DNA of 32,185 bases from Nemertoderma westbladi (GCA_032718475.1 JAUCBJ010005023.1:1-32185), one strand, 5' to 3'. Positions 2,280-30,838 are shown, numbered from the stretch's first letter. The notes: generated by a model from the sequence alone, not told the origin. Translations and numbers: made by a program.

Positions 2280-2670
2280 ATTTTCTGCGATATCTCAAGA
2301 ATTATTCGCTTTTTGTTTTGAAGTTGTCTACCCCCACTAAATCGGCCATTGCGGTTCTAATGATCATAATATTAATGCAGTAGGAGAACTCAAAGTTGGC
2401 CATCGCGAAAATTTAGAAATATCATCACTTGTGCCAAATGGTAGGTTCTGTCCATGATGGATTATTTCACTATAAGGTAGCATTTGTAGCTTAACGTAAA
2501 AACATTCTAAAATCCGACGCATTTTGATTAAATTACAGTAGTGTAATATGCCTATTCATATTGGTACACATAAATCCGTAGGTAATTCTATTGGCGCAGT
2601 GGTCAGATGGTTAAGGCGTTGGTTACATTACAGATCTGGAAGGTTCTAGCGGATTCTATGTCCCAGATTT

Positions 2671-2710
2671 GCTATATAAGGGCCGGTTTGCCCTCGGTTA
2701 TCACTCTATT
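2671..2710 (+). promoter_or_regulatory. Putative LTR Pol II core promoter (TATA + Inr-like)
   Basis: CTATATAAGGG is followed ~25 nt later by TCACTC. The same arrangement is at ~19163 and in the solo LTR (GTATAAAAAGGG ~4372). GCCAAT boxes lie upstream in the 3' LTR (19033-19080) and solo LTR (4136-4300). Confidence 0.5.
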
Positions 2711-3874
2711 CACATTATGTTATCCACACACTTACTTTTCTTGTTATATATCTTTAGATTTAATTTGTTTGATAAATCTTTGTAAATTACACAAATATAC
2801 TGTAAACTTTGAATATGATATTTTGTCTCGTCCACCTTTGGGACTGCCAAACATTTGGGAGATGGCTGCCTAAACCGTTAGGCCGTCAGCAACGCAGGGA
2901 AAGATGTCCACAACGCGCTAAGCGCCCACATTAGATTTGCCCGCGCACCCGTTCGAAGCATGCCCCCTTGCTATACAGCGCCCACTTCAGAGGAAGTTAA
3001 GACTTTGTTTGACGCCCTTGCCCGCAGTAAGACCTATAGATCAGGGTAAGCGTGATGCCGTCCTGGGACACCGTAAAATTTAGGATCGAATATTTAGACT
3101 TAGACAGGAGCAAATAGGCAAAATCCCCGGATTAACCTGTATCTCCTACAGGTGTGAACTATTGCTGTTTGTCAGTATGCGCAAGTACACTTTTGGTGCA
3201 GACAGCACAAGTTCCATAATTTGGTGACTTGCAGTACTGACAGCTCTGTACCGGTTCACTTTGTAGTTTATACATTTGATTGCCCCTGTCTGAGCCCGAA
3301 ATATTTGATCAGACAAGGAGCAGCTTTCTGCTACCGGCACTTTGCTTGGCCTAGGGAGGTTTACTAATATCCTACCGCGCCTTGCCACATACTGATAGGT
3401 ATTGCTGCTAACCACCGCGGCAACACAATTCTAGAATCAAATTGTATACCAGATCAGCTAACGTACGGTAGCAATTAACACCTATTTCTTATCTTACAAC
3501 CAGAATCTGGTATTTGTGCCGATCACGGGTGTAGTTACTAACACCGTAATTGCCCGGTTGAGTTGTGGATAGGAAGGAGAGAGCTTTGATGTCATTTTGT
3601 AAGTATAAAGCCCTACAGAGCGTGATTAGCTTATTTTAGTAGCTATTGTTTTTGGTCAGAAATCACCGAAACCTAGTACGACGGCGATACACCAAAATTG
3701 TTTTATTTGTAACACACACACACGTCCTAAAACATATATACCCCCATCGAGACCTGCTAGCTACTAGCTTACTTTAGGTTACTTTCAATAGGATTTATTC
3801 TGCAGTTCTACCATTCTTATTTGTAATTTTAGGAGATATTTAGTATTTAGTTTTACGGCAAGTATTTTAGATGG

Positions 3875-6165
3875 TGATGAATTATTTCACTATAAGGTAG
3901 CATTTGTAGTTTAACTTTAACGTAAAAACTTTCGAAAATCCGACGTATTTTGATTAAGTTACAGTAATGTAATATGCCTATTCATATTTGTACACATAAA
4001 ACCCTTAGGCACTCTCGTGGCGTAGTGGTCAGATGGTTAAGGCGTTGGTTACATTACATAGGTTACGAGTTCGAATCCCAGTCGGGAAATTTGTATTTTG
4101 GGGCCATTTATTTTCGTTTGGTGCTAATTGGTAGGCCAATGAGAAGCGTACAACGTAGCGAATGATGAGCCAGGCCAATCATAGGGCATAAATTATCTTA
4201 TTGCTCAAATGTGAGGCAGTGGAAAATTCTGTTAGGATTCCATGTCCCAGATTAGTGTAAGGGCCGGACTGCGTTGAACGATGAGCTGGGCCAATCATAG
4301 GGCACGAAGCACTTCATTGCTCAATTGTGAAGCTGTGGAAAATTCTGTTTAGTTTCCATGTGCAATTTCTAGTATAAAAAGGGCGGTTTGCCTTCGGTTA
4401 TCACTTCTATCACACTTCTTAGAACCCTTATGTTACACTCTCTTATTCTTGTAAAAATTAGTTAATTCGGTTTCTTGTTGAAACTTCGTTTTGATAAATC
4501 CTTTGTAAAACTGTAAATATACTGCAAATTCCTGAACATGTTTTTCCTTTGGTCCAACTTCGGGACAGCCGAACATCAGGGAGATGGCAGCCTAGACCGT
4601 TAGGCCGTAAGCAACGCAGGGAAGGGATGTCCACAACACGCTAGCGCCCACATTGGATCGACCGCGCACCCCCTTTGCCCCTTCGAAATGCTCAACTTGC
4701 CATGCAGCGCCCGCTTTGTGAGAAAGGTAAGACTTTGTTCGACGCCCTTGCCCGCCGTAAGACCTATAGATCAGGGTAAGCGTGACACCGTACTGGACGC
4801 CACAAATTTAGGATCAAATAATTATATCCAGACAACCCCCCCCCCCCCCCCCCTTTGTCAAGTCCTACGAATCCCTGGGTTAACCTGTACTTCCTACAGG
4901 TGCGAACTATTGCCATTCGTCAGTACGCGAGTACATATTAGGTACGGACAGCATATGTTCCATAATTTAGTGAGTCGTAGCACTGACTCTTTGGTACCGG
5001 TTCGCTTTGTAGAACGTACATTAGTACCCCCCCCCCCCCCCCCCCTGTCTGGAGTTAGCTATTTGATCAGGCAAGGAGCATTTCTGCTACCGGCACACTG
5101 CTTGGCCTAGGGAGGTTTATTAATATCCTATCGCGCCTTGCCACGTACTGATAGGTATTGCTGCTAACTACCGCAGCAACAAAGTTCTAGAATTAAATTA
5201 GTATACCAGATCAGCTAACGTACGGTAGCGATTAACCCCTATTCTTATCTTACAACCAGAATCTGGTATTAGTGCCGATCACGGGTGTAGTTACTAACAC
5301 TGTGGTTGCCCATTGGGTTGTGGATAGGAAGGAGAGAGCTTTGACGTCATTTGTGAGTATAAAGTTCTACAAAACGCGACTAGTTTATTTTAGTAGCTAG
5401 CGCACGGTATCATTTAGTCAGAAAATCACTAAAACCTAGTAAAAGGAATTACACGAAATAGTTTTATTTGTAACACACCCACACACACACGCCCTAAAAC
5501 ATATTGCCCTTAAAGTTCTACTAGCTATAGCGCACTATACATTACTTTAGGTGGAAATTGTCTGTATTTGTAAAATTAGGATCCGATTTAGTTGCGGCAA
5601 AATAAGGAGTATTTCACTTTCGTTATTAAACTGTTGATTTCTATCCAGCAGTTATTGTTACATTTAGGCCTGACCCTTTAGACTGATTTCGTACAGGGGG
5701 ATCAGTTATCGTTACATTAGGTACGACCCCTTTCGACTGATTTTAGGACTGAATCAGTGTTGTTACGCTAGGTCTGTTAACCCACTAGCTCGTATATAAA
5801 CCATATAAATCACACCGCGGCAAGTTACTGTATTTAGGACTGTCAGTGATAGTTAGGATTCGCTGCGCGGGGATTGTTTTCCCGTGAGTTTGGTCTGTTA
5901 CTGTAACTGTACATCTGCCTCACCGGTTAGAGGACAGGTATCCTTCTGTCTAGTACGTAGGCATTAGACCCGCTCACGTACATAGAATAGATACTAGGCT
6001 CTGTTCCTCGCCAGTAGTCGTTTGTGTACTGTATCTGTTTGTTTAGATATCCTGGACTGGGATTTGTTGTCAGATACTGTACGAGCCCGTATACATTACT
6101 AGAGTCTCATAGTAAGATACATCGTTACTAGGATCTGGTAAGCGGTATACTACTGGACCCTTACA
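3875..6165 (+). mobile_element. Solo LTR of a related BEL subfamily inserted in the 5' LTR
   Basis: TGATGAATTATTTCAC...GGACCCTTACA is homologous along its length to the host LTR but diverged. TSD GATGG at 3870-3874 and 6166-6170. The empty site TTTTAGATGGCATGCACC is seen in the 3' LTR (~20065-20082). Confidence 0.93.
4012..4099 (+). ncRNA. tRNA-derived Pol III-like unit in the solo LTR
   Basis: A box TGGCGTAGTGG (4018-4028), B box GTTCGAATCC (4069-4078), T4 at 4096-4099. No intact anticodon arm. Confidence 0.6.
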
Positions 6166-6670
6166 GATGGCATGCACCCTTTTGACTGCTTTGCCCCTGT
6201 CAGCAGTATTGTTACTTTAGGTACTACCCCCTTTTTGACTGCTACCGCTTGTTAGTAGTATTGTTATGCTAGTCTGGTAATCCACTAGCTCGTATATAAA
6301 CCATATAAATCACACCGCGGCAAGTTTACGGTATTTAGGTCCGTTAGCGATAGTTAGGATTCGCTGCGCGGGGATTGTTTTCCTGTGAGTTTGGTCTGTC
6401 ACTGTAGACTGTACATCTGCCTCACCGGTTAGAGGCCGGGTATCCTGTTTTGTCTAGTTCGCCCGGGCATTTGACACGCCCACGTATTAGAATAGACACC
6501 AGGCTCCATTCCTCGTCAGTAGTAGTTCGCGTATTTAGTATCTGTTTATTTAGACACCCTGGACTGGGATTTATTGTCAGATACTGTACGAGCCCGTATA
6601 CACTACTAGATCTTACAGTAAGGTACATCATTACTAGGATCCGGTAGGCGGTATACTACTGGACTTTTCA

Positions 6671-6681
6671 GTAGGAGATAT
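6671..6681 (+). other. Non-canonical primer-binding-site position of element 1
   Basis: GTAGGAGATAT follows the LTR CA directly, with no TGG. The first 10 nt are complementary to TATCTCCTAC at 3140-3149 and 19630-19639. Confidence 0.55.
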
Positions 6682-7494
6682 ATATATAAATATATATTAT
6701 TAGCTATTGTAAAGGTGGGAAGATATTTTACAATTTAAAAATTTAATAAAGTTAGTAATTTGTAGAACGTCCCCTGCCAGTAGGCCTTTAGGGTAGTTTT
6801 ATTCATATTTAGCTAGCTATAAATAGTTAGTTAGTTTGTAATTATTTGTTGTACGCCGTGTGTGTGCGGTGTTACTTTTCGGTACTTGAAAAGGTACATA
6901 GGGTTTAAAGACCAAGTTGTATCGGTACCTAGGAAGAATTTTCGTAGAGTAGAAGTAAAACTCTCACCTTCGACTTTTCAGGACTCAAGGATTCCTTTCT
7001 GGACCGCTTCGAGGGATTAGACCGCTTTTCGCAAAGTTTGGGAGACACAAAATTCGTCCGCGATGCCGAAAACGGAACGACCCACGTCCGGTTTGTATTT
7101 GGGAATTTGCACGACTGGAAAATCAAAGGAGCGTAAGTTTTACGACTCTTGTCGTTCAAACTTAAGAGCACAGTAGTACTCAAAATTTGTGGGTTCCACT
7201 GTCTAATTAGTAGTATTGTTGGTACTTATTTTCCCATTAGACGTTGCTGTTTTGCCTATTGTTTGTACTTGTTGATCTACATTTTGGTAACGTATACCGT
7301 TATCTCACTTATTCGTACAAATTTAGCCGGTAGGCTAGATTATTACATATTTTATTATATACTTTGATTTTATTTGTACCGGTTAGGGTATATATATGGT
7401 ATATATATATACTAAGGTAAGTTTGACATTTTGACATTTCGACATTCTGATACTTTGACATTTTATTACCCGTACTTGACGTATATAATAAGAC

Positions 7495-10400
7495 ATGAGT
7501 GATACACCACATTCACTCGATACCCACCTACCGACTATGACTCGTGCGACCCAGACAGATCGACAGTAGACGAACCGAGAAGGAGAACCCAAGATTCCAC
7601 CGATGTCACACCGCATATTACTCGAAACTTCGGAGAAGGTTTTCGCGTTTTACGCGAGTTAACCGCCCCGATGTCGAGATACGAGTTCTACACCTTACAG
7701 GTAAGGATAGAAAGTAGGGTACATGCTTCTGTAGATAAACTTAAAGGTTTACACGAACTTGCAGAGTTGCGTGGCGACAACTTTACTCAGGTAAAGATAA
7801 TAGATAAGTTGGTAAGTGCGAGGGAAAGCCTCATCCAGTTTAAGTCGGTTGTAGGATCGACTCAGCAAGAACAACTCGACCAACTGTTATGTGAGTCAGT
7901 TTCGGACGCATTGTTACAACCCGAAGACTATACTGCCTGGATGGGAGGTTAGAGACGCTCACCAATTTTCTTCGTAGATGTGGCGTCGTACCGATCGAAG
8001 AACCGGAAGTCGAACCGCGAGGGATGACGGAAGTTCTAACTACGGAAGGCTCGCGAGCCTACCAAATTCCACAACTGGATAGATCGTTCGTTAGTGTGCG
8101 GAGCGACGTTGGCGATGTTAGTAGGACAGCATCTGTAATTACTCGACAACAACAGGAGGTCGCACGCCGAAAACAAGTCGCCGAGGAAGAAACGCAACGA
8201 CAATTGGCGCAGATTGCGGCGGAAGGAGAAAGACAGCGCAGAGAAGATGTAGCGAAATTTGCGAAACTCCAGGCTCAAGCCGAATTTGAAGCATCGGAGA
8301 TGCGGAGATTAGAGGAGGATTTAGCGCGAGAAGCGGCGGCAGCAGCCGACCAGTTAGCACGACAGGCGGCAGCTGACGAGTTAGCACGACAGGCGGCAGC
8401 TGACGAGTTAGCACGACAGGCGGCAGCTGACGAGTTAGCACAACAGGTGGCAGCTGACGAGTTAACACGGAAGAAAGCAGCATCCGATGCTCGTGCCAAG
8501 TTGGAGGCGCGACAAATAAACGCTCGTTTAGCTATACAGGAAGCGGAGTTAGCAGCACAACAACAGGTGGCCGATCGCTGCGAAAGGGAGATGCAGCTCC
8601 AGTTCAAACTAAATCGCAGATCGCGCGAGGTGGCGAACGCGCAAGAGGACCTCGAACTCGATGCGAGAGATAGATCTATAAGGTCTCGAGCTGGACATGA
8701 CTTGTCTGCCCTGGATCGCATGGAGACTCGATATCGCGGAATTCAGAAGCGAATCAAGGAAGGAAGTGTGGGAGCGATAGATCGAGGAGAGGAGTTTGTC
8801 GAGGATTACTGTCAACGTTTTCCACAAGTTATTCCTATGCTCAAACCCACGACTCCAGTAAAACCGGTCATAGTTGCAAAACCGAAGAAAATATCACCCA
8901 TGCAAGGTAATAGGTTTGTTATGTCGGAATCAATTCCGCAGCCACGAGCGACTTCATCGCGATTCTCGCAGGTAAGATAAGTAGTCCACCTACTGTAAGC
9001 CGTAGTTTACTTGTAGAGAGAGACGAACCTGCATTTATGAATGTAAAACAGGTGAGTAAACCATTACAAGTTAAACCTGTGCCGTGCTGCGCAAACCCAG
9101 TCATTTATAAACCTACAGTAGCACTTAACTCTGATGTTTTTACTAGACCCCTCACCCAATGTTTATCGAGACCTACAACTTCGTGGAAGGCTTGCAAGCC
9201 TACCGAACAACGAAGGACTAACCTTGTGGGTAGTACCCACACTATCGAACCAAGTTTAACAAGACCTACGACTTCGTGGAAGGCTTGCGAGCCTACCGAA
9301 CAATGGAGAGCCGTAGATCCCAGACCACAACGAACGCGACAAAGAGTAATATGCCGTATGCGAACCCACCAACCACCTTATCTGGATGACAGCGACTCAT
9401 CCAGTGACTCGGAGTCGACAGAATGGGAAATATTCCGTACTGGAGCGGCAGCGGCAGCGGATTACAAATGGGAGGAGAGATCGACAAATCCATACATCGA
9501 CAATCCTCCACGAGAAACACCTTTGCAGAAACCCACGTTGCAACCAACGGAAGCGATTAGCGCCAAACAGTTCACCGAGATGATGGACTGACTAGCTCAA
9601 CTCGAAGAGCGACTCGAAGCGCAACTGTCGGATCGATCATGAACCAGCATGGAGTTGGAACAACCTAGACAACATCGACCACTAAGGAGAGAACAGGAGA
9701 CTAGACAGACGCCGAACCATCGAGAAGAAGATCCTGTTAATATTTCCTACCGACGGACAACGCGCAGAAGGGAACGACGCAACCGAACAAGGACACGGAC
9801 AGTTGGATTTGGTTAGCGAGATTGCGAAGTTTGCGGCTAGACACGGATTACCGGCACAACAACCGCCGAAGTTCTCTGGCAACGCAAAACACTGGCGTAC
9901 GCTGGTAGACTACGTAGAGTCCCAGATCGCTAAGTGTGCTTTCACCTCGATGGAGAAGTTTAATTACTTGCTCCAGGTTCTGTCTGGTGAGCCGAAACGA
10001 TTAGCGGAAACCTTCATTGGTGTTCCAGATGCCTTTGAGTTGGCGTATGACCGTTTGTATTCGATTTACGGCGGCAACGTAGCCATGGCTAAATCTATAT
10101 CGAAGACCTCTGTAGAGGAGGAAGTATTTCGAAACCGATCAATCTTTTACGACTCGCGGACAAAATCAAGAATGCTATACGGACTTTATGGTCCATTGGA
10201 CAACTCGAATACGCTAACGCACCGACAGTTCTCATTATGATAATCGGTCGAATTCATCATCGATTACGACGAGAATGGCGACGCATCGAGTATCAGCGTG
10301 AAGAGGCCGGTGGGCTATTAAAACTTACCGACGTCTACCAACTGATTTCGCGGGAGGCCGTAGTGGAGATTTGATCAAACTATACTGATCACCATATAGC

Positions 10401-10943
10401 GGCAGAAGGAATAGCTATTGCTCCGCCGACTCGGACCAAACCATTTCCGACGAACGCAAAAGCCGTGACTTATGCCACCCGACCGAAACTTCTAAAGTTC
10501 TGACGCCTATTGGCACCAAGCAGCCACGACAACAGTTGCCGGCGGACTTTGTGGGATGCTCATAGTGCGAGCGGAACGGCAGAAACCACAGCGGACATAA
10601 ACTACGTGGATGTCGCGCTTTTAGAGAGTTGGGAGTTAAAGAAAGGAGACTTCAAATTCGATCTTTGGATTCTTGTTGGAGATGTACCAAGCCTGGACAC
10701 GTCCGGAAGGATTGCCCGAGCGACAATACATGTCCTCTATGTGGACGTAACCACGACTCGTTACTTCACACAAACAGTCATACTCTGACCAGACGCTTTC
10801 GACGAGAGCATCCAGATAAAGCGGCTAGATGCGACGCACTTTATAAAGAGCGTGCGCCACGCGAGACTCATACATTCTATACGGACTGTATGGATCAATC
10901 AGGCTCATCGGACAAGGATGAGGAGGAAGACAACACCTTTTAA
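7495..10943 (+). pseudogene. gag: BEL/Pao Gag (fragmented by stops and frameshifts)
   Basis: Long coiled-coil N-terminal part (8024-8980). DUF1759-like PPKFSGNAKHW...EKFNYLLQVLSGEP (9803-10240). Cys/His knuckles CWRCTKPGHVRKDC and CPLCGRNHDSLLH (10629-10943), plus a first knuckle near 10555-10615. The start at ATG 7495 is tentative. Confidence 0.9.
8340..8465 (+). repeat. 27-bp coding tandem repeat (AADELARQA)n, ~5 units
   Basis: GCAGCTGACGAGTTAGCACGACAGGCG repeated in frame within the gag coiled coil. Confidence 0.9.
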
Positions 10944-11576
10944 GTGCATGCAGGGGAGGAACAACCATCGATAACACTCCTCACACAGAACCAATTGAAA
11001 GGGTTTAGCGTGATTCCTATAAAGATTACCGGAACCCGAGGGAGCAAGCGTATATACGCTATCTTAGACTCTGCGTCATCGCATAGTTACGTCAACGAAC
11101 AAGTAGCTGACGTAGTTACGGACATGAGTAAAGGTAAGACTGCTCAGTATACTGTAAGCAGCATGCATGGTAAGAGAGCAATCCCAGTGACGAGAGTAAA
11201 ACTTACCTTAGACACTCTTCTTTCCAAAACGGAATACAGCAAGGAGGAGCGCTCATTACTTCCAGTAAGAAATTTGACCATTGCATCTACGAAGGACTTT
11301 AGTAACTTGCTCGGCCCTGTGCCAGAGCTATCACCGGAAGATTGTAAGTATTTCCGATACCTTAGAATACCGGAATGTCCTGTTAATTATCGCTCAATCG
11401 TGATGTTGATTGGGACAGACCAGTTTAACTTACATCAGGTATGGGAGACACGCCCCTCTGTTATTACAGCGGGCAACCCCTACGCATGTAGAACTCCCAT
11501 AGGTTGGTATACTAGAGCACCAGTGCATTCAGTAGAGGTAAGTGATCAGGAGGATGACGTTTTTGAGTACGTGTAG
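10944..11576 (+). pseudogene. pol: BEL/Pao aspartic protease domain
   Basis: IYAILDSASSHSYV active-site motif, MLIGTD, and PYACRTPIGW. Confidence 0.9.
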
Positions 11577-12099
11577 TTTACTGACTACCACGATAGATAA
11601 TTCTCCTTCACACTCCTGTGGTCCAATTGTACAGACTGCACTACAACAGACTTGCGTCGCTAATGCTGACGTAACTGATACTGACATAACTGATCTGGAT
11701 ACGACCACACGGACCTCTGACTTACAACTACTTGCAGTAAACCAGGTTGTATTGACTACTGAAGACCAAAGGGTTGTTGCTGTGGATGACTCGATGAATG
11801 AGGGTTTTGGAAGGCTTGCGAGCCTACCGAAAAATCCGAAGGTCATTGACCCCACCCACCAGTCTTCGACACCGGTCATTGATCTTGGAAGGCTTGCGAG
11901 CCTACCGACAGATCAGAAGGTTGTCAAACCGCCACACGACGATTCGACGCCGACTAGTGACACCGGAAAGCTTGCGAGCCTACCAGACACATTGACACTA
12001 GCCACCGCAACGGACAAAGACGTGGACGAGGACCATGGCGCAGTGCAAGCAGCGCTTGACCGACTGCTGACTGAACGGACCATTAACTGGTTAGAACAG

Positions 12100-13130
12100 G
12101 ACTCAGCAGAACCCGGTAGTTACGAGACCGCTATGTCAGAACAGGAAAAACGGTCATTAAATATTATGAGAGATACCATTCGCCAGACCGCGAATGGACA
12201 CTACGCAGTAGGCATGTTGTGGCGCAATGGACAACATAAGCTCGTTAACAACTACCCGCTTGCTTTGAGGCGACTCAACTCAATAAGGCAGCGATTGTTG
12301 CATGATGAGACGACCCATATGCAATACAATGCGCAACTTCAGACGTATCTCCAAAAGGGATACGCCATTAGGATGTTAAATCCCAAGGTAACCACAGATC
12401 AGACATATTACCTGCCACATCATTTTGTTTGACACCCGGACAAACCTGGCAAGGTGCGTGTTGTCAACGACTGCGCTGCGCTTTACCAAGGGATGTCTAT
12501 GAACAGCGAACTGATGGACGGGCCGAATATGAATAATTACCTCATGGGAGTCATAATGCATTTTAGACAACGCAAAATGGCTTTCACCTGTGACGTAGAG
12601 GCCATGTTTCACCAGGTTAAGGCTTTGGAGCGGGACAGGGACAGTTTAATGTTTCTTTGGTATCCGGACGGAAATTTAGAACTTCCGCCAGAAACTTACC
12701 AAATGCAGGTAAGAGTTTTCGGAGCAAGGGACAGCCCAACTGCACCATGTATTCCTTAAAGCAGACTGCATCGGACAGACAAGACCAATTTGACCCAGAA
12801 GTAGTTTGGACAGTGGAACGAGACTTCTACGTGGATGATAGCCTCAAGAATTGTGACACTCTGGAGTGCGCTACGACCGTAGCACACCAACTCCAAGATT
12901 GTCTCGCTGAGGGCGGATTTCGACTCACGAAGTTAATTTCCAACGAACCCGAATTAGTGAACTCATTCGACCCGAAGGATCGCAGTGGAGGAGACTTGGA
13001 CTTAGACCAAGAACCTCTACCTATGACCAAGGTATTATGACTTAGGTGGGACCTGAACACCGACAATTTTAGTGTACGTGTAAGGTCCAACGACCAGACT
13101 AGACCTCTCACTAAGAGGACTTGCTTATCG
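12100..13130 (+). pseudogene. pol: BEL/Pao reverse transcriptase (stops and frameshifts)
   Basis: YYLPHHFV*HPDKPGKVRVVNDCAA, LMDGPN, DVEAMFHQV, FGARDSP, FYVDD, GGFRLTK. Confidence 0.95.
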
Positions 13131-13133
13131 ACC

Positions 13134-13850
13134 ATGAGTCGATTGTATGACCCATTGTGTTTCATTAGTCGAGTGATCCTACATGCTAGGATCATACTCC
13201 GCAGCATTTGGCAAGGCGGACTGGAATGGGACGATCCCATCCCAGAAAAGTTAGCTGAGCAATGGAGGGACTGGGAAGCCCAACTGACGTTCTTACAAGA
13301 CTATACCATACCAAGGGTATACTTTCCTTTGCAGACCACCTTTCCTGCCGATTTAGGGCTTCACAGCTTCAATGACGCTAGTAAGGATGGACTGGGGGTT
13401 ACTTTATACCTTAGACGACAAGTGACATCGGACAGCTACGAAGTGTCTCTCGTTACTTCAAGGGCTAGAACAATGCCGTTGAAGTATATGACTGTACCTC
13501 GTGGAGAGCTGCAAGCCGGGACGATATCCACCGATATTGTAAGTTTAGTTCAACGCGAGCTGGAGGCTAACTTGAAGGTCACATATTGGACGGATGCGAT
13601 GTTGGTACTTTGGTACATAAACAACGAAACATTCAAGTTCAAGACTTTCATAGCCAAAAGACGGGCTGAAATATTAGACCGGTCGCTCAAACAAGATTGG
13701 CGTCACTGTCCAGGGAAGCTGAACCCAGCTGACATCGCGTCACGGGGGATGCTACCGATCGACTTTTGTAAACCGGACAATAAATCCTTTTGGTTTAGAG
13801 GACCCGATTTCCTACAACGACCATCAGACGAATGGCCACCGTTATTAGAT
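13134..13850 (+). pseudogene. pol: BEL/Pao connection and RNase H domain
   Basis: LYDPL, WDDPIP, FNDASKDGLG, VPRGELQA, YWTDAMLVL, WRHCPGKLNPADIASRG, WFRGPDFL. Confidence 0.95.
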
Positions 13851-13969
13851 GCGACAACTAATACCATACCGGAGGGTGCCGAGATAAAAATCGACACAGT
13901 TGTCAAATCTAAAGTGAAAGCCAAGGTCAAGAGGAAACAAGGACGGACGAAATCTGATGACCTGGACGC

Positions 13970-14390
13970 TAGACCCGACATTACGCCAGACGTCTCACCA
14001 GACTCTTGACCAGACGCTCGTATGAATCTTTCACCGGAGTTCCGCGGGAGATTTCACCAGAAGTTTCGCCGGATTGTTCACCAGATGACTCGCCAGATTA
14101 TTCACCAGAAGCGACACCAGATTGTTCTCTGGATTGTCCGCCAGATTGTTTTATGGAACTCTCGACAGATTGTCTACCGGATGTTTCACCAGACTTTCCA
14201 CCAGACATCTCGACAGACTGTCCATTAGACTTTAGACCAGACATTCTGATAGAAGCTACGCCAGACTTTCTTTGGGACTGATGACAGAACATTTCGCCAG
14301 AAGTTCCGCGCTATGTCTCACCAGACGTCTTACCAGACTATTCACCGGACACCTCACCAGACTGTCTACTAGACTTTCCACTAGACGACT
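13970..14390 (+). repeat. Degenerate 12-bp tandem repeat encoding (P-D/E-x-S/P)n between RNase H and integrase
   Basis: CCAGAC/CCGGAT/CCAGAA recur with 12-nt spacing. Translation: SPEVSPDCSPDDSPDYSPEATPDCSLDCPPDC... Confidence 0.85.
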
Positions 14391-14799
14391 CGATGGAAAG
14401 AAAAGACGTGTATTATAAGGACGCAATGAATTCATTGGAGCGGACTAGTACACACCCATTAGGTATTAACAACTTACCGAATTTGACTTCTTTGGACGAT
14501 GAAGGTGTGGCCACAGCGATCACACTCCCCTCAAGGAAAATACTTGACTTACTGTCTACAGGTAAACGTGTGACTAAGGTTAGGAAGCTTATGAGTTGAA
14601 ACCGTTACTGCCAGTCAATTCACTAGGTGCGGACGGTAAAGGTAAGACCGTGGAGATTGATATACTTGAGGACTCAGACAAACATATTGTACAAAGGGAG
14701 ACACCTACCAGAAGGCCCGTGGGCCTACCAAGTCCAAACAAGTATCCACATTTTGACTATACCTTACCTGATGACGTCACCAACACTTACGTTGACAGG

Positions 14800-16340
14800 A
14801 TAGTAAACCTAACTAGATCATGGACTGAAGCGTGCCGCAAGCTAGCATGGCTCAAACGTTTGAGACAATATGCCAGAGGCAAACGCGACTTTCCTAGAAG
14901 ACTTACCTTAGAGGAAGTTGGTCTTTATGAACTTGATATTATTAGACATTATCAATTGCGATATTTTGCACGAGAGTTCACAGCGATCAATCAGGGTAAA
15001 CAGATCAAGTCTTCACCGATTTTGAGTTGGAGTCCGATAATCTATAGGGGCTTACTTTGTCACAAGTCCAGACTCCAGAACATTGACTTTGCACTTGACT
15101 TTAGGTATCCTATCATCATACCGCAACACCATGAGTTACAGCGCGCTATGATACTGGACGCACATGTACGACTCAAACACGTAGGTAGACATCACTGTCT
15201 ATCACACTCATGATCGAGATTTGTACTGATTAGGCCTAGTAAGGCACTGAATTCGGTAACAATGAACTGTATGATTTGTAAGAAGGTGCACGCGAGGATA
15301 GGACACCAAGAGATGAGTGAACTACCACTAGCGAGATTACAGGCTTTTAGACCCCCTTTCACTGAGACAGGGATAGACTGTTTTGGACCCATAATCGCGA
15401 AACGCAGAAGGGTACAGGTAAAACGTTGTGGATTGATCTTCACTTGCATGGCCAGCAGAGCTATCCATATAGAGCGTGTGACAGACTTGACCACCAACGC
15501 CTTTATCCTAGCCTTACGGCGATTTATCTCTAGACATGGATTGTTCAAATCCATTTATTGCGACCAAGGGACTAACTTTGTGGGTGCACGGAATGAAATT
15601 ACCAGAGCTTTAAGGAAGTTGGACCAAAACCAGATTTCCGAGGAATTACGTCCTCACCGTATTGTTTGGAGCTTTAACACTCCTGACAGTCCGTGGAGAG
15701 GCGGCGTTTGGGAAAGGCTGATTGGGTCAATAAAGACGGATATGGCAAAAGTAATACCGACGCAACACATACTAACAGACGACCAACTGACGACGTTGTT
15801 AATAGAAATCGAAGCGGTTTTGAATACTCGACCGATCGCTTTGATCCCAGACAATAACGACTCACAGTTTGCCTTGACACTCAGCGCACCTGCTTATGCA
15901 GGCGCTGACGACATTGTTGCCCACTTCGGTACCTGTCGATAGCGATGGATACGGCAACAAAGCTTGGAAAATCACTCAGTTGTTAGCCAACAAATTCTGG
16001 GAAATATGGCAGAAGCACTATTTGCCCTCTATTTCAACCAGAACCTCTTGGTACCCGATGTTTGAGACGAGGTGACCACGTTTTATTGGCTGAAACCAAT
16101 CTGAAAAGACGGTTTTGGCTGACTGGAGTCATTTTGATCAAGCACCCTACATCTGGTATAGTAAGGACAGTTACTGTACGGACTATTGGCAGACGTACCG
16201 TAGGCCTGTACAACGTCTCGTGCTCCTTGAGGAGACTAGAAACGAGACAGGAGACTACAAATCTCCACCCAATCTTAGTAAATAGAGATGTGGGAGCCTT
16301 GATGGCCGCCACATCGACTTACCGTATTTTAGTAATTTAG
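14800..16340 (+). pseudogene. pol: BEL/Pao integrase (HHCC zinc finger, DDE core, C-terminal DUF5641-like region)
   Basis: HVRLKHVG...CMICKK, GIDCFGP, IYCDQGTNFVGA, PWRGGVWERLIGSIK, IEAVLNTRP, FWEIWQKHYLP, GDHVLL...WLTGVI...GIVRTVTVRT. Confidence 0.95.
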
Positions 16341-16914
16341 TATTTTGTATTACTGTATGTGCATTTGTATTCCTCTTCACTGTAGATAGAGTCAGCGGTG
16401 GAATTCCATTGTCTTTATATGTGAACATGGAGGGTAGTACCCTTATGTATCACATAGGAGCGGGATTGTGTGTACAGTAGGAATGGAATTCCACTTGGAA
16501 CCCACAAGTGAGACAATTTTTCAAAAATTATTAGACAAATCCATTTAGTTGGATTTAAATTTAAGAAAAATGATTCTCCAGTGAATGCGAATTCTAGATT
16601 ACAGCTAGATAAAAATTAAAATTGGGGAGGACAAGAGCGGATGGAAGGCTTGTGAGCCTACCGATAAATTTTTTTTGGAAAAGAAAATCGGCCTTGTTCT
16701 ACATAATCGTGTCTACTATTATTTTGGACCAAATTAATTCTCGACTGCACTATTTTCTTTGGGAGGTAGTTTGGGAAAATAAGGAGCCAGTGCGAAATCA
16801 CGCGAAACCCGAAGTCTTTAGGCAAATGGGTAGGGGTTTTAGACCGAAGTTGAGCCAAAGGCTGACAAAACTCTAAGTCTCCTCACATCTAACCTCTGTT
16901 TGTGCTTCCTCTAG

Positions 16915-17289
16915 TAGAAACACTATATACAGGGATTCACGCAGGAATAGGAGCACCAGGCGCCGTTCAACCTATATGGGGCCAAAAACTTTAACATGTT
17001 TGGAGTGGAGAGTATGGCTAGGAGTACAGCCAAGCTCGCTAAATCCAAGGCGGACCCGAATGTTACGCGACAACGATTGGTCGCTTATAACAAAAGAGCG
17101 GATGAGTTACGCGTGGAATTCAATGCGCTATACCCCTACGATGCATTATGCGACGCCAGTGACATTTGCGAGGATCCAGACATGGAGATACGCCGATTAT
17201 ATCATACGCTGCAATATTTGATGGCGAGCGAACCCTTGCCTGCAGCCAGGGCCGGATTAACCAGTAGGCTAATAAGGCTGAAGCCTTAG
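16915..17289 (+). CDS. Unknown accessory ORF A downstream of pol (probably a spliced exon, one frameshift)
   Basis: 97-aa ORF at 16996-17289 extends to a strong 3' splice site (CTAAC 16889-16893, pyrimidine tract, AG 16913-16914) if one A is removed from the A5 run at 16984-16988. No recognisable domain. Confidence 0.45.
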
Positions 17290-17422
17290 GGCCATTGAAA
17301 AAAGCGGTCACACTTTCCTACAAAAATGTTGAATTGTAATGAGTTGAATGTAATGAGAGTTAATAGGAAGCCTATAAAATAGTCTGTAAAAGGGGCACTT
17401 TACATCATTAGTTTCTTAGTAT

Positions 17423-18274
17423 ATGGACCCGTCCGTGTTCAGGCTAGCCGGGAACCATTTCATTAAACTGAGTAGATACACCGTTGGTTATGTACTATGT
17501 ATTATTTGTATATTCCATACATGCCAGCCTAGCCAAGGCCTCTACAAAATCTCAGTTTGCTACCAGCCTACTACAATAGATCAGCTGATTGGGTAACCCC
17601 CCTGTGACTCTAAAGATTGTTGGCCAACCGGCCATCTCTTTATTTGTTGCATTAGGGACGAATTAGGGACGAATTCAATGGAATGCATCTTTATAGATGC
17701 GCTCGAGGAGCGGATCCAGAGACAAAGGACGTGTTCTCCATTTATAAACTGTTCTATAAATGTGGAGGATGTATGTGTGCGCAAGACAACTCGATTCCTA
17801 TGCGCTTGAACCCGGAGAACCCCGAGCCGATATTAGCGCAATGTTCATACCACCAAAGTCTGCGTTACCAAGAAGGCGGATACCCTTTGACGAATCCGTA
17901 CCATTCGTTTAAGATGAGTGGACCGAATGCGGGCGAGATTGTCATTTATGAACCCAAATTAGTCGAACCAGACTTCTATAGTATGATAGCGGGATGAGTC
18001 TAATAAGTCGACACAAGAGAAACGGGAAGCTTTGAGCCTCTATAGGGCATACAAAGCGCACGAGAAAGGCGAGATCGAGGAGTTCGGCGGAAGGCTTGCG
18101 ATCCTACCATTTTATTGGATATCCTATGATCAAACCGAACCCAAGGAGATGACGGTCGTTTCATTTCCCGGTATTCTAGAACCGCAGGCAACTCGACGTA
18201 GGAGCCCAAGCCCAGCTAGACCGAAGTCACCGATTAATCGTATAAAAGGGCAAAGGCAAAGGACACAAGCGTAG
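17423..18274 (+). pseudogene. Unknown Cys-rich accessory ORF B (~280 codons reconstructed)
   Basis: ATG 17423 follows TATAAAA (17373-17379). One TAA (17594), an 11-bp tandem duplication ATTAGGGACGA (17651-17672) and one frameshift near 17990 join three ORF pieces. Confidence 0.55.
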
Positions 18275-18740
18275 AGAGCGAGATGATTGAGAAAGGAAGG
18301 CTTGCGAGCCTACCGTTAGCGATTAGCGCTCAGGAGAAGATATCCAGACCAGTAAGTAGGACGAACTATTGAGCTCGTCAGGAGAACACTTTAAGACTTA
18401 TTTGGAAGTTATTAGCATATTATGTTTGTTTACATTTGAACTGATTTAATTTGGAAAGTTTATTATGTATATTTGTAATATATGAGAGATTATTGAGATG
18501 TTTGAAATTATTTGTTCTAATTTGTTTAATTTGTTCATTTTGATAACCGAAAGCCATCTTTTTTTTGTATTTTATGCACTAAAGTTAATTGGTAAATTTG
18601 TATTTTGTATGTATGATAGAATGTATTTACGCTGTACCTGCAATGATAAGTATGTAATAATTAGGTAGTGATTATTTTATATTTTAGGCCCCACCATTAG
18701 ACCTAAGAGATATTTTGTAAATAGTTTATATTTCGATTGG

Positions 18741-18775
18741 TGAAAACAGTCTTACTTACTGTTTTCATGGAGCGG
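18741..18775 (+). other. Hairpin plus short atypical polypurine tract of element 1
   Basis: TGAAAACAGT-CTTACTT-ACTGTTTTCA, then TGGAGCGG immediately before the 3' LTR TG. Confidence 0.65.
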
Positions 18776-20569
18776 TGATGGATTATTTCACTATATGGTA
18801 GCATTTGTAGCTTAACGTAAAAACTTTCTAAAATCCGACGCATTTTGATTAAATTACAGTAGTGTAATATGCCTATTCATATTGGTACACATAAATCCGT
18901 AGGTAATTCTATTGGCGCAGTGGTCAGATGGTTAAGGCGTTGGTTACATTACAGATAGGTTACGAGTTCGAATCCCAGTCGGGAAATTTGCATTTTTGGG
19001 CAATTTATTTTCACTTTGATCTAATTAGATAAGCCAATGAGGTGCATACAACGTATGGAACGATGAGTTGGGCCAATCATAGGGCATAGCACATCTTATT
19101 GCTCCAATGTGAGGCCATGGAATGCTCTGGAAGGTTCTAGCGGATTCTATGTCCCAGATTTGCTATATAAGGGCCGGTTTGCCCTCGGTTATCACTCTAT
19201 TCACATTATGTTATCCGTACACTTACTTTTCTTGTTATATCTTTAGATTTAATTTGTTTGATAAATCTTTGTAAATTACACAAATATACTGTAAACTTTG
19301 AACATGTATATTTTGTCTCGTCCACCTTTGGGACAGCCAAACATATGGGAGATGGCTGCCTAAACCGTTAGGCCGTCAGCAACGCAGGGAAAGATGTCCA
19401 CAACACGCTAAGCGCCCACATTAGATTTGCCCACACGCCCGTTCGAAGCATGCCCCCTTGCCATACAGCGCCCACTTCAGAGGAAGGTAAGACTTTGTTT
19501 GACGCCCTTGCCCGCATTAAGACCTACAGATCAGGGTAAGCGTGACGCCGTCCTGGGACGCCGTAAAATTTAGGATCGAATATTTAGACTTAGACAGGAG
19601 CAAACAAGCAAAATCCCCGGATTAACCTGTATCTCCTACAGGTGTGAACTATTGCTGTTCATCAGTACGCGCAAGTACACTTTAGGTGCAGACAGCACAA
19701 GTTCCATAATTTGGTGATTTGCAGTACTGACAGCTCTGTACCGGTTCACTTTGTAGTTTATACATTTGCCCGCCCCTGTCTGAGCCCGAAATATTTGATC
19801 AGGCAAGAAGCTTATTTTAGTAGCTAGCGCGCGGTATTGTTTTTGGTCAGAAATCACCGAAACCTAGTACGACGGCGATACACCGAAAATGTTTTATTTG
19901 TAACACACACACACACACACACGTTATAAAACATATATACCCCCTTCGAGACCTGCTAGCTACTAGCTTACTTTAGGTTACTTTCAATAGGATTTATTCT
20001 GCAGTTCTACCATTCGTATTTGTAATTTTACGAGATATTTAGTATTTAGTTTTACGGCAAGTATTTTAGATGGCATGCACCCTTTTGACTGCTTTGCCCC
20101 TGTCAGCAGTATTGTTACTTTAGGTACTACCCCCTTTTTGACTGCTACCGCTTGTTAGTAGTATTGTTACGCTAGTCTGTTAATCCACTAGCTCGTATAT
20201 AAACCATATAAATCACACCGCGGCAAGTTTACGGTATTTAGGTCCATTAGCGATAGTTAGGATTCGCTGCGCGGGAATTGTTTTCCCGTGAGTTTGGTCT
20301 GTCACCGTAGACTATCTGCCTCACCGGTTAGAGGCCGGGCATCCTGTTTGTCTAGTTAGCCCCGGGCATTTGACTCGCCCACGTATTAGAATAGACGCCA
20401 GGCTCCGTTCCTCGCCAGTAGTAGTTCGCGTATTTAGTATCTGTTTATTTAGACACCCTGGACTGGGATTTGTTGTCAGATACTGTACGAGCCCGTATAC
20501 ACTACTAGATCTTACAGTAAGGTACATCGTTACTAGGATCCGGTAGGCGGTATACTACTGGACTTTTCA
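18776..20569 (+). repeat. 3' LTR of element 1 (1794 bp)
   Basis: TGATGG...CTTTTCA followed by TSD GTCCA; matches the 5' LTR. Confidence 0.96.
18906..18997 (+). ncRNA. tRNA-derived Pol III-like unit in the 3' LTR U3
   Basis: A box TGGCGCAGTGG (18913-18923), B box GTTCGAATCC (18966-18975), T5 at 18993-18997. The 5' LTR copy (~2590-2635) has lost the B box by deletion. Confidence 0.6.
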
Positions 20570-21602
20570 GTCCATGTGCCTGTGGCACTAGTTCCCTTGA
20601 TCCAAAAATTAAAATTTTGGTATCTAACTAAGTTTGGACCCATTTGATGACATTTGATGCATGCAGGAAGTTATTTCTTGAGTCATTGATCTTTCATTAA
20701 TGTGTTATATTGCTATAAATTTCATTATGGTGCATCGCGATGGCTCAAAATTTCAACCCTCTTGGGATCCGTGAAGATATAGACGAAATTTAAATAATTT
20801 TTTTTTCCTTATTTTTTTACCATTTGGCAACTTTTGTGCACCGGTAGAACAATGAAATCGAAAAAAAAAGTAAAAACGCACCGCCCTAATGGACAGCCCT
20901 AATTATCCCTCACCTCTATATTTCCTTGCATCTTCATAATTTTTTGTTTATGTTATGTCATTAAAGTTAAGTTAAATTTACTAAATTTATTTTTTAGGAT
21001 GGTGTAATTCTATTCTGGACCAACTCGTTTTTTGACCTATCAGTTTCTCTGCGAACTTCTGTGCCAAGATTGTCGAGCCTTGGCATAGATAACGAAGTTG
21101 GTTCACTCATCATCTCAACTGGTCAATGGGAATTATTTAGGTATATATAAAATTTACGTAAATAAAAAGTAGGTGTAAATATTTTTTAATTTCATAAAGA
21201 AGGATTTATAGAGAAAATATGTAATAAATATAAAAATAAATAATATAAAAACTGCGGGTGAGAATCCTTTAACATCTAAATGGCACACAGTATATATGAG
21301 TTAGGTTTCAGATTGACCCCATGTTTTCAGGGGCGGGGGTGGGGGGGGGGGGGGGGTGGTTCTAGCTTGGAAGTCAACATTTTGAAAAGCTTACAGCACC
21401 AAAAGGCGAATAAGTATAAAAAATGAAAAAAATGTGTAAGATACATACATTTTGGGTGGACTATATTGAATTGAATAATTATAAAAAAAAATTAACTTTT
21501 GACGCCCAGAACCAAAGACCTATTAAATTTTTAATTAAAATTATACTCCTTTGTTATACTTTAATTTCAGAAGCTTTAAAATGGTTTTTTTCCAAAATTG
21601 TA

Positions 21603-22540: not shown

Positions 22541-22656
22541 AGCAAGTAAAAGCAAGCAAACAGTCGGCCGAAGCCGGAGGCGACCCGAAGGCTCCTCTTT
22601 CGATAGCTGCTACCCGAGGGTAGGGGTGGGCGCTACTCCTATCCCAAGATTTGCTC
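22541..22656 (-). mobile_element. 5'-truncated SINE copy (RTE-type 3' tail)
   Basis: 12-bp TSD ACAGACAGAAAA (22529-22540, 22657-22668). The reverse strand reads GAGCAAATCTTGGGATAGGAGTAGCGCCC...GCTATCGAAAGAGGAGCCTTCGGGTCGCC...(TTGC)-like tail, shared with 23050-23098 and resembling RTE LINE 3' ends. Confidence 0.75.
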
Positions 22657-22923
22657 ACAGACAGAAAAGGCGATGCCAAATTTGTATAATGACATCACAA
22701 ATGAACTCACCGACTACAAAAACATATAATATAGGGAATTTTTTAGGCATCGATTATGTTTTCTATTGATTAATAGTAAAACAGTAACACGAACAGACAG
22801 CAATTTCTCAAGAAGTAAGACAGATCTTGCTAAAACGTTTTCATACCCCCCCCCCTCCCCCCCCCTTGATAATTTTAGATTTTTTTTTATTGTTTATTTG
22901 GCTCATGTAATATAGGAAGCGTC

Positions 22924-23199
22924 GGTGGGGTAGCTCAGTTGGTTGAGCGCCGGGCCTGTAATATAGTGGTTGTAGGTTCAGCCCCGCCAGGGTCCACTCA
23001 GCCTTTCATCCACTGGGGTCGACAAAATGAGTACCAGTTAAATAACTGGGAGCAAATCTTGGGATAGGAGTAGCGCCCAGCCCTACCCTCGGGTAGCAGA
23101 TAGGAGTAGCGCCCACCCTTACCTTCGGGTAGCAAATAGGAGTAGCGCCCACCCCTACCTTCGGGTAGCAGATAGGAGTAGCGCCCACCCCTACCCTCA
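22924..23199 (+). mobile_element. tRNA-headed SINE, 5' part (split by element 2; remainder at 31464-31493)
   Basis: A box TAGCTCAGTTGG (22931-22942) and degenerate B box GGTTCAGCCC (~22975). Central ACTCAGCCTTTCATCC...GGGGTCGACAAAATGAGTACC block resembles the one in RTE-partnered SINEs such as Sauria SINE. Confidence 0.75.
23063..23199 (+). repeat. 36-bp tandem repeat derived from the SINE tail
   Basis: GATAGGAGTAGCGCCCACCCCTACCCTCGGGTAGCA x3, plus a fourth unit cut by element 2 and continued at 31464-31493. Confidence 0.9.
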
Positions 23200-23820
23200 T
23201 GTGACGGGATCGAAGATCCCAACCGGGTTGATGTTTCACGCGTCACCGTTCTACTGTCAGGGATGGTGCTAGTAGCCTGGCCGAGGCCGTTATAGGAAAA
23301 CAATGAGAGTCCGGTGTTGTCTCTTTGATAATAGCACAATAATGTTATGGTAGAACCACAGATTTAATGATACCGGTATGTGTCTGATTGATCAGTACGG
23401 TAAACAACTGATACCGGTCTGCACTAACTGAGTAATTAACTAAACTGAATGACACACCGGTAACAGGAGATAATATATGATTGATATAGCAATATTGCTT
23501 CACTCCTACGTTACCTTGGCCTGCTACCTAGTGGATGCTCTCCTTTGCCCTTATTGGCTAATAACCTACTTCTCACCCTTTCACTCTCTGGGAGTGTTTC
23601 CCCTCTGTTACTAGCCTCTGCTAGCTGTGTCCCCTCCGAGGTGGTTTGACCTCTAACCTTCCTTTGTGTGTGGCTTCGGGGTTTGTGTTGCCCCCCCCCC
23701 CCCAAAATGGTGGTTGTGATACGAGATTAATATTGCTAATCTCGTATCTCCAACATATTGCCGAAAATGCCACTGTCCCATTTATTGGTGGGTAATGAGG
23801 CGGAATTGAATGCGCTTACA
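23200..23820 (-). repeat. 3' LTR of element 2 (621 bp)
   Basis: Near-identical to 30850-31463; preceded on the sense strand by the PPT GGGGGGGGTAG. Confidence 0.95.
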
Positions 23821-23860
23821 CTACCCCCCCCATGCTATCTTCCCGGTGAGAAGATAGCAT
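23821..23860 (-). other. Polypurine tract and adjacent hairpin of element 2
   Basis: Sense strand reads ATGCTATCTTC-TCACCGG-GAAGATAGCAT-GGGGGGGGTAG|TGTAAG. Confidence 0.8.
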
Positions 23861-30775: not shown

Positions 30776-30838
30776 CTTTACTTTACTTTTACTGTCTCTA
30801 GCTGTCTGGTGTCTGGCAGTCACAGTTATAGCAGTTGG

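Follow-up and report, generated by a model that had tools for sequence, protein, structure and literature searches.

Little is known about how LTR retrotransposons outside yeast recognize their own RNA or DNA, and replication of BEL/Pao elements is called poorly understood in the ICTV profile (PMC8742986). In a 32,185-nt stretch of Nemertoderma westbladi DNA (GCA_032718475.1 JAUCBJ010005023.1:1-32185; hereafter the window), a 20-nt imperfect palindrome occurred ten times inside one such element, always on the sense strand, raising the question of what keeps the motif there and whether it is read as RNA or as DNA. A near-invariant 20-nt motif in ten copies constitutes a defined ligand with natural variants, reducing both the identity of the reader protein and the choice between RNA and DNA to a simple binding question. 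If true, either answer would be new for BEL/Pao elements: dispersed packaging or transport signals on the one hand, or an animal parallel to VANC anti-silencing on the other.

Host element

The motif was hosted by a decayed BEL/Pao-type LTR retrotransposon of ~15.8 kb (element 1; Table 1). Its LTRs were 96.7% identical over 1614 aligned bases (3.3% difference), with TG...CA ends and a 5-bp target-site duplication. The gag region comprised a long unassigned N-terminal part, a DUF1759 capsid domain and a zinc knuckle (in frame 10566-10943), and pol comprised protease, RT, RNase H (Peptidase_A17), integrase and DUF5641, with long linkers at ~11520-12060 and 13880-14715. Pfam matches to DUF1759, zf-CCHC and Peptidase_A17 were above cut-off and that to DUF5641 below it, and by tblastn the order of Gag capsid/nucleocapsid followed by PR-RT-RH-IN was colinear with P0001, P0003 and P0005. 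Judged by sequence, element 1 is of BEL/Pao (Belpaoviridae) type, having an LTR pair with duplication, and gag with PR-RT-RH-IN carrying Pao-type domains.

Element 1 shares LTRs, gag, the PR-RT-RH-IN order of pol and Pao-type Pfam domains with the Belpaoviridae as profiled (PMC8742986), but at ~15.8 kb, with LTRs of 1.8-1.9 kb, it exceeds the 4.2-10 kb and 0.2-1.2 kb given there for elements and LTRs, respectively. It also differs in its long hairpin-bearing linkers, missing from aligned relatives, and in its primer site: directly after the 5' LTR of this decayed copy no tRNA-type (TGG-type) site was seen. Just a short purine run occupied the polypurine tract position ahead of the 3' LTR. Protein searches returned 1435 relatives at E <= 0.001, of which 150 representatives were listed; among the matches listed, the best relative was 45% identical in RNase H, and the best stretch never began before query residue 147, leaving the hairpin linker unmatched. 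The 3' accessory ORF A had no Atlas match and no homolog at near lengths, and its low-confidence structural model (pTM 0.37) had no PDB match and yielded no DNA-binding fold; no Pfam family was matched by the pieces of putative ORF B.

Table 1. Positions of element 1, its parts and the ten motif copies in the window.
Feature	Position	Strand	Description
Target-site duplication, 5' side of element 1	2450-2454		5 bp
5' LTR, element 1	2455..6670	+	Split by nested solo LTR; self-BLAST and boundaries
Nested solo LTR, related family	3875..6165	+	Self-BLAST and boundaries
Target-site duplication of nested solo LTR	3870-3874 and 6166-6170		5 bp
gag region	7494..10943	+	Broken by stops and frame changes; Pfam, tblastn, translation
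Copy 1	8044..8063	+	EGSRAYQ phase, N-terminal part of gag; CGCG loop
Copy 2	9185..9204	+	WKACKPT phase, linker in gag; TGCA loop; forms a duplicated pair with copy 3
Copy 3	9278..9297	+	gag linker; phase WKACEPT
pol region	10944..16240 (3' end approximate)	+	Broken; Pfam, translation, tblastn
Copy 4	11809..11828	+	GRLASLP phase, protease-RT linker; opens a row of three spaced by 78 bp
Copy 5	11887..11906	+	Protease-RT linker
Copy 6	11965..11984	+	One stem pair broken here but intact in almost every other copy of the family
Copy 7	14710..14729	+	Most divergent; two-sided change of the loop-closing pair, and one outer pair broken; at the edge of the integrase region
Copy 8	16643..16662	+	TGTG loop; downstream of pol and upstream of accessory ORF A
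Accessory ORF A, 97 aa	16996..17289	+	All-helical prediction, low confidence
Putative accessory ORF B, in pieces	17656..18372	+	Cys-rich part and Arg/Ser/Pro-rich part; putative gene
Copy 9	18089..18108	+	In the putative ORF B region, within a 94-aa open frame; one pair of the stem broken
Copy 10	18295..18314	+	44-aa open frame near end of putative ORF B region
3' LTR, 1794 bp	18776..20569	+	Self-BLAST and boundaries
Target-site duplication, 3' side of element 1	20570-20574		

The motif and its confinement to the element interior

The initial annotation had described a 21-nt hairpin, dispersed in one orientation and absent from the LTRs. All ten of its start positions and the shared plus orientation proved right, as did the constant A.A mismatch and the YGYR loop (each 10/10), though the conserved core was 20 nt, position 21 being G in six copies and A in four. 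The number of copies expected by chance was 0.00 (100 shuffles). An unfiltered covariance-model scan of the whole window recovered the ten copies at E <= 1.5e-7, a match by construction, together with their own reverse-strand shadows, and no further copy at E < 1 in the LTRs, the nested solo LTR, element 2 or the flanks, bearing out absence from the LTRs; no copy lay in the ~20 kb of the window beyond the element interior. There were four loop types (TGCG, CGCG, TGCA/TGTG and CGTG), with a CpG in 7 of 10 loops. The motif doubles as a degenerate perfect DNA palindrome, its two 11-bp half-sites (YGGWAGGCTYG, head to head) agreeing at 8 of 11 positions, and extra half-sites were not enriched in the element interior.

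Seven of the ten copies were in gag-pol frames, two in putative ORF B pieces and one between genes, and conserved enzyme blocks were avoided, nine copies lying wholly outside them and one at an edge. Even spacing of the copies was not significant (p = 0.08). Two clusters are tandem duplications, at intervals of 93 bp (9185/9278) and 78 bp (11809/11887/11965), so the ten copies amount to about seven independent sites.

Rfam 15, which includes the histone 3' stem-loop, gave six window matches at E <= 10, none on a hairpin copy, ruling out a likeness to that stem-loop. A likeness to REP palindromes was rejected, as 596 Gb of prokaryotic sequence held eight single exact matches against 8.7 expected, each of the eight lacking another copy within 1.5 kb, and a likeness to the p53 half-site was dropped. 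The exact pattern had no match in viral contigs and 26 single matches in metagenomes, 19 of the 26 sharing one common flank; none of the 26 was accompanied by another copy when <= 4 mismatches were allowed, and six ORF pieces of the element were unmatched there by tblastn. Among viral contigs, 35 pattern matches were found in the search for relatives, none of them confirmed. The four peptide readings of the motif were absent from all 170 related proteins fetched, a comparison that a hairpin of other sequence would escape. Four spellings of the motif core were not found in literature text, nor did listings and abstracts found by topic describe a BEL/Pao element that carries one, most subscription papers being outside both searches. 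The main text of one survey (PMC3118150) used "hairpin" or "stem" 0 times, its supplements (2.0 million characters, excluding the file of all element DNA sequences) contained neither motif nor peptides, and the Belpaoviridae profile does not mention an internal repeated hairpin (PMC8742986).

Conservation at the nucleotide level

The motif was read in three codon phases, as had been claimed: EGSRAYQ in a 361-aa frame (7895-8980), WKACKPT/WKACEPT in a 225-aa frame (8914-9591) and GRLASLP in a 296-aa frame (11542-12432), the coding frames at 8044, 9185 and 9278 of this decayed copy having been assigned from open-frame length. Its reported occurrence in non-coding DNA was less certain: 16643 was outside open frames of at least 100 aa, but an 87-aa open stretch spans it. 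Within the 78-bp units, cores were identical at 39 of 40 positions versus 34 of 58 (59%) in the spacers (Fisher p = 4e-6), and a single core pair alone gave 20/20 against 34/58 (p = 2e-4). As 11 of 19 spacer codons changed amino acid while the cores stayed constant, the constraint acts on nucleotides. We conclude that the motif is held constant at the nucleotide level, which, together with the three phases, supports the earlier view that it is not a protein motif.

One inner-stem pair was broken in each of the copies at 11965 and 18089, and one outer pair in that at 14710. These pair-breaking changes had gone unmentioned in the initial annotation. Elsewhere in the family the pair broken at 11965 was intact in 42399 of 42424 depth units (run X1), in 19785/19785 (X2) and in the sole contig of X5; this stem-breaking change is private to the present genomic copy. 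X5 is perhaps an RNA run and is given no weight here as a sign of expression, and run X4 yielded nothing. The LTR difference of 3.3% predicts ~3 private changes among 200 hairpin bases, and transitions were enriched at CpG (17/36, p = 2e-4), so the three broken pairs and the TGCA/TGTG loops fit decay after insertion. Across the family, three hairpins making up 66 of 251 bases contained 0 of 5 segregating sites; this lack of common variants is not significant alone (p = 0.21) and may be biased by contigs from other copies piling onto hairpins. Some family contigs go back 58-61 bases within the 78-bp region, which suggests extra units. Certain deleted derivatives have their junction on or next to a hairpin (11877 joined to 12463; one loose end, at 11899).

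Folding and covariation

A hairpin was predicted in all ten copies, with a 5-bp stem, the A.A mismatch, a 2-bp stem and a 4-nt loop that may resemble the UNCG/YNMG type. In 60-nt context the inner-stem pairing probability was >= 0.9 in 8 of 10 copies, versus just 4 of 10 local stems in 150-nt context, where neighboring copies cross-paired. Plus and minus strands were equal in folding energy (-9.1 kcal/mol for six copies), and minus-strand stems also folded in context in 7/10. Two copies cofolded at -33.7 kcal/mol versus -18.2 kcal/mol for two separate hairpins, all four loop types being self-complementary with G.U allowed.

The copy at 14710 had been put forward as a compensatory variant, and its loop-closing pair was indeed altered on both sides, but there was no covariation signal above shuffles: the observed score was reached by 374 of 500 shuffles and the share paired by 489 of 500, with one compensatory event and too little variation to give the comparison power. 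The bases flanking the stem were T..G in five and C..A in four of the nine pyrimidine-starting copies and never Watson-Crick (Fisher p = 0.008, or 0.029 after duplicates were collapsed; post hoc, with 18295, A..G, left out). U.G and C.A wobbles are isosteric, so this coupling points to a folded strand, though it could instead reflect two ancestral types.

A proposed multivalent RNA signal and its alternatives

The reading that we favor, at about even odds (roughly 0.5), is that the motif works multivalently as an RNA hairpin to which protein binds, so that full-length element RNA is singled out for particle assembly or for transport. It is favored by the constancy of cores relative to spacers, the pair kept in the family, the two-sided change at 14710 and the flank coupling, and the A.A mismatch left uncorrected in 10/10 copies also speaks for it, as do the inner stems predicted in 60-nt context and the precedents of viral packaging signals, ASH1 zip-codes and the I-factor stem-loop. 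It is weakened by covariation no better than shuffles, equal strand energies, copy-copy pairing at 150 nt and a fixity of sequence that known dispersed packaging signals and zip-codes lack. Shared orientation is expected from duplication within one element and also occurs among the DNA-binding VANC motifs (PMC5735166). Of the RNA signal proposed initially, the nucleotide constancy, confinement to the element interior within the window and non-protein nature stood, and RNA function is tentative. Also against an RNA signal, the 5' leader carried no copy. Retroviral packaging signals sit in the 5' leader. Those of Ty1 are likewise placed there in the excerpted text of PMC5454406.

Under an RNA signal, the copies would have arisen through duplication during reverse transcription and survived, in any codon phase, solely where linkers or untranslated DNA tolerated them. 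Selection may then have kept them because many sites, one every 0.2-2.8 kb, would give avidity along the ~15.8-kb element. A candidate protein (the Gag zinc knuckle, an accessory ORF A or B product, or a host transport adaptor) would bind each hairpin on the full-length transcript, thereby marking that RNA for particle assembly or transport.

More tentatively, we propose that a giant BEL/Pao lineage evolved a multivalent recognition code for itself. A 20-nt hairpin of almost constant sequence would have been duplicated, in three frames, into each linker of gag, pol and the accessory region that tolerates it, and a protein encoded by the element, either Gag or the product of an orphan 3' ORF, would read it. 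If true, an animal LTR retrotransposon would for the first time be described as carrying a dispersed packaging or export signal of fixed sequence, or else a VANC-like system of self-recognition.

Alternatively, the motif might be a palindromic double-stranded DNA site for a protein dimer; the likeliest candidate is an accessory factor that the element itself encodes, with an anti-silencing or activating role, as VANC has for VANDAL. We consider this main alternative, which the initial annotation named in passing, less probable, and it merits about half the weight given to the RNA signal. The agreement of the half-sites is in its favor, as are the co-oriented copies in tandem units, with apparent extra units in the family, which VANC motifs share in the excerpted text of PMC5735166. 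CpG-biased decay of the LTRs suggests host methylation of the element, CpG being common in the loops, and orphan 3' ORFs are present in the element. However, VANC motifs are short and mainly non-coding, a placement not seen here, and the LTR promoter has no copy; dimer binding leaves the two-sided change at 14710 and the T..G/C..A coupling unexplained, and the low-confidence model of ORF A offers no DNA-binding fold.

It is unlikely that the motif has no receptor and was spread and homogenized by template switching at the fold-back during reverse transcription, being tolerated in linkers. Two tandem clusters with a hairpin at or near the unit end, an apparently variable unit number in the family, and deleted derivatives that join at or beside a hairpin would fit such an origin, and conserved enzyme blocks free of copies are as expected for neutral insertions. 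Yet spacers of shared tandem units drifted to 59% identity while cores stayed unchanged, self-correction of the palindrome would erase an A.A mismatch that all copies kept, and conversion would have to copy 20-nt tracts over kilobases without their flanks. Still less likely is mutual pairing of the palindromes with no protein, as a genome-RNA dimer or a compacted single RNA in which kissing loops extend into 20-bp duplexes: the self-complementary loops, the cofolding energy, cross-pairing of neighbors in 300-nt folds and the involvement of palindromes in Ty1 dimerization (excerpt of PMC5454406) are consistent with it, but the energy gain is common to any palindrome and hence non-specific, pairing would favor removal of the A.A mismatch and need no fixed sequence at every stem position, and ten interchangeable sites would permit out-of-register pairing.

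Comparison with known systems

Like the MS2 TR-like packaging signals scattered through RNA virus genomes, as described in an excerpt of PMC6281560, the motif consists of many stem-loops that share a sequence along a genomic RNA and lie within coding sequence. The viral signals vary around a small recognition motif according to that excerpt, whereas those of element 1 are near-invariant over 20 nt, palindromic, tandem-amplified and situated in an LTR retrotransposon, and are known here from sequence and predicted folds. Mismatched stem-loops inside coding sequence are also found in the I-factor, G2 and jockey (excerpt of PMC6719617) and in the ASH1 zip-codes (excerpt of PMC4615550). The stem-loop of the I-factor lies in ORF2 and is described in the first of these excerpts as a single one; ASH1, by the second, has four redundant zip-codes (E1, E2A, E2B and E3), three of them in the ORF and without an obvious common sequence, in contrast to the nearly invariant motif of element 1. 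VANDAL/VANC anti-silencing in Arabidopsis resembles element 1 in its family-specific motif with many co-oriented copies and in the accessory ORFs within the element (excerpts of PMC5735166 and PMC6719617), as well as in tandem-repeat amplification with gain and loss of units (PMC5735166, same excerpt). The VANC motif described there spans 8-9 nt, mainly in non-coding sequence of a plant DNA transposon, whereas that of element 1 is a 20-nt fold-back mostly within the gag-pol of a retrotransposon.

Host element and its family

With the nested solo LTR set aside, element 1, a BEL/Pao-type LTR retrotransposon, was about 15.8 kb long with LTRs of 1.8-1.9 kb, far exceeding both size ranges in the ICTV profile of Belpaoviridae (elements of 4.2-10 kb, LTRs of 0.2-1.2 kb; PMC8742986). 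Pfam matches comprised DUF1759, a zinc knuckle and the Pao Peptidase_A17, with DUF5641 only below the cut-off, and the protease, RT, RNase H and integrase aligned colinearly with three related polyproteins. The genes were interrupted by stops and frame changes, and the LTR pair differed at 53 of 1614 aligned bases. The closest protein found was 45% identical, so that element 1 stands as a lineage of its own among the collections searched. Its family is abundant in its host: contigs matching 6600-19000 numbered 13039, 6690 and 7748 in sequencing runs X1, X2 and X3, of which X1 and X3 represent one sample. The nested solo LTR belongs to a related family, with an identity of roughly 78-88% in blocks.

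The 10 bases straight after the 5' LTR (6671-6680), the expected tRNA primer site, were the exact complement of 3140-3149 and 19630-19639, inside both LTRs; such a complement was present in 15 of 5000 shuffled LTRs in a post hoc test. This arrangement resembles self-priming of the Tf1 type, which would be unusual for BEL/Pao. Since the same LTR bases resemble a 3' splice acceptor as well, the match may be due to chance. Words similar to an A-box and a B-box occurred in a tRNA-like stretch that was present in the 3' LTR (about 18913-18985) and the nested solo LTR (about 4017-4090), and absent from the 5' LTR of element 1 (junction at 2635). ARAGORN and Rfam made no call on it, and it gave no cloverleaf fold.

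Features of the contig other than the hairpin copies
Feature	Position	Description
Left-flank repeats	761-1544 and 1840-2283	Tandem repeat of 162-164 bp in about five units, and imperfect inverted repeat of roughly 440 bp; probably non-autonomous DNA elements or repeats of other kinds
Element 1, decayed LTR retrotransposon	2455-20569	5-bp target-site duplication
Solo LTR of related family, nested in 5' LTR of element 1	3875-6165	2.3 kb, own 5-bp duplication
27-bp tandem repeat, gag N-terminal part	8311-8481	Encodes alanine-rich coiled-coil-like segment; parts skipped by family contigs
Degenerate 12-bp tandem array, RNase H-integrase linker	13961-14386	One frame reads D/P/S/C-rich tetrapeptides
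Orphan 3' ORFs	16996-18372	Occupy env gene position
ORF A	16996-17289	97-aa orphan, predicted helical at low confidence
Part of 3' ORF region	17364-17777	Lower family depth; skipped or replaced in some contigs
ORF B, putative broken frame	17656-18372	In pieces, no Pfam match
36-bp tandem unit with inverted copy about 400 bp off	22604-22660 and 23046-23198	Just outside element 2
tRNA-like, SINE-head-looking stretch	about 22925-23000	Adjoins 36-bp unit copies outside element 2
Element 2, LTR element	23204-31464	Minus strand; repeat pair 92% identical; DUF1759 and aspartyl-protease matches
77-bp tandem array in element 2	24664-25148	

Copies of the hairpin and their conservation

All ten copies of the 20-nt hairpin placed by the initial annotation (starting at 8044, 9185, 9278, 11809, 11887, 11965, 14710, 16643, 18089 and 18295) were correct and on the sense strand, with 0.00 expected in shuffles, and translation confirmed that they are read in three codon phases. 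Run without filters, a covariance model yielded no further copy at E below 1 anywhere in the window, and element 2 contained none. Twelve of the 20 core columns were invariant, including both A's of the A.A mismatch. Nine copies fell outside the blocks aligning to relatives and one overlapped a block edge; the hairpin-bearing protease-RT linker was matched by none of the 150 relatives listed. Two clusters were tandem duplications, of 93 bp (9185 and 9278) and 78 bp (11809, 11887 and 11965), leaving about seven independent sites.

Comparison of the 78-bp units indicates that the hairpin is conserved at the nucleotide level. Cores were identical at 39 of 40 positions against 34 of 58 in the homologous spacers (Fisher p = 4e-6); 11 of 19 spacer codons had a changed amino acid, and third codon positions of the cores were unchanged. 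The sole core difference breaks a stem pair of copy 11965 and is specific to the genomic copy analyzed here, as the pair is intact in practically all other contigs of the family (X1, 42399 of 42424 depth units; X2, 19785 of 19785; a further run, X5, 1 of 1 contig). Post-insertion decay could account for the remaining broken pairs and for two loop variants, since about 3 private changes were expected in 200 hairpin bases and transitions were enriched at CpG in the LTRs (17 of 36, p = 2e-4); the family comparison covered three hairpins. Common variants were lacking in these three, a deficit not significant by itself (none of 5 segregating sites; p = 0.21), and contigs from other copies may dilute variants at hairpins because family contig depth doubles over a hairpin. 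Conversion between copies may have contributed, but would require 20-nt tracts without their flanks.

Folded RNA or duplex DNA

Sequence alone leaves undecided whether the motif takes RNA or DNA form. Shared orientation, the main argument first offered for RNA, would arise anyway through duplication inside one element. Other observations favored a folded strand. In copy 14710 the loop-closing pair was altered on both sides, and the A.A mismatch was never corrected in any copy. Of nine copies (18295 left out), five had T..G and four had C..A as the bases flanking the stem, never a Watson-Crick pair; this coupling was noticed post hoc (p = 0.008, rising to 0.029 when duplicates were merged). T..G (U.G) and C..A wobbles are isosteric. 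When 60 nt of context was included, predicted stem probability was at least 0.9 for 8 of the 10 copies. Against a folded strand, stem covariation was not above shuffles (374 of 500 reached the observed score), plus and minus strands folded alike, and with a context of 150 nt neighboring copies cross-paired, so that local stems kept at least 0.9 in only 4 of 10. Read as duplex DNA, the motif comprised two head-to-head 11-bp half-sites agreeing at 8 positions.

Proposed role and alternatives

We postulate, with a probability of about 0.5, that the motif is a multivalent, protein-bound RNA hairpin signal through which full-length RNA is marked for transport or for assembly into particles. Starting from the observed copies, positions, tandem amplification and nucleotide-level conservation, and from a predicted hairpin, copies would arise by duplication during reverse transcription, and selection for avidity along the long element would keep many of them. 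A protein partner would bind each hairpin and so mark the full-length RNA. Candidates for the protein that reads the motif are the products of ORF A and ORF B. From their composition, the Cys-rich and Arg/Ser/Pro-rich parts of ORF B could be nucleic-acid binders.

The main alternative, less probable, is that the motif serves as a DNA site to which a regulator encoded by the element binds. In plant VANDAL transposons, VANC targets DNA motifs that share one orientation and are amplified in tandem repeats, units being gained and lost (PMC5735166), and the hairpin would be analogous in its orientation and amplification. Some family contigs go back 58-61 bases in the 78-bp region, suggesting extra units. 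The CpG bias of the decay hints at methylation by the host. However, VANC motifs are short and mainly non-coding, whereas 7 of 10 hairpins lay in gag-pol frames and none in LTRs. Receptor-free spread of the motif by template switching is improbable. RNA-RNA zipping of palindromes is less probable still: two copies cofolded at -33.7 versus -18.2 kcal/mol, but the same gain is expected of any palindrome.

Comparison with known systems

The ten-copy cis-motif of this giant BEL/Pao-type element is real and conserved, and apparently undescribed; a single lineage, represented by a single assembled copy, is so far known to carry it. No Rfam family matched the hairpin, viral contigs lacked the motif, and four spellings of its core were found in none of the papers searched. 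Topic searches of the literature, which took in the main text of the principal BEL/Pao survey, returned no such motif in BEL/Pao elements. A bacterial repeat was rejected (8 single matches versus 8.7 expected by chance), as were metagenome matches, which were single copies unrelated to element 1. The hairpin differs from VANC targets (PMC5735166) in not lying mainly in non-coding DNA. If the RNA signal reading holds, the motif would operate in the manner of dispersed viral packaging signals (PMC6281560) or multi-element zip-codes (PMC4615550; PMC6719617), its likeness to either group being one of analogy.
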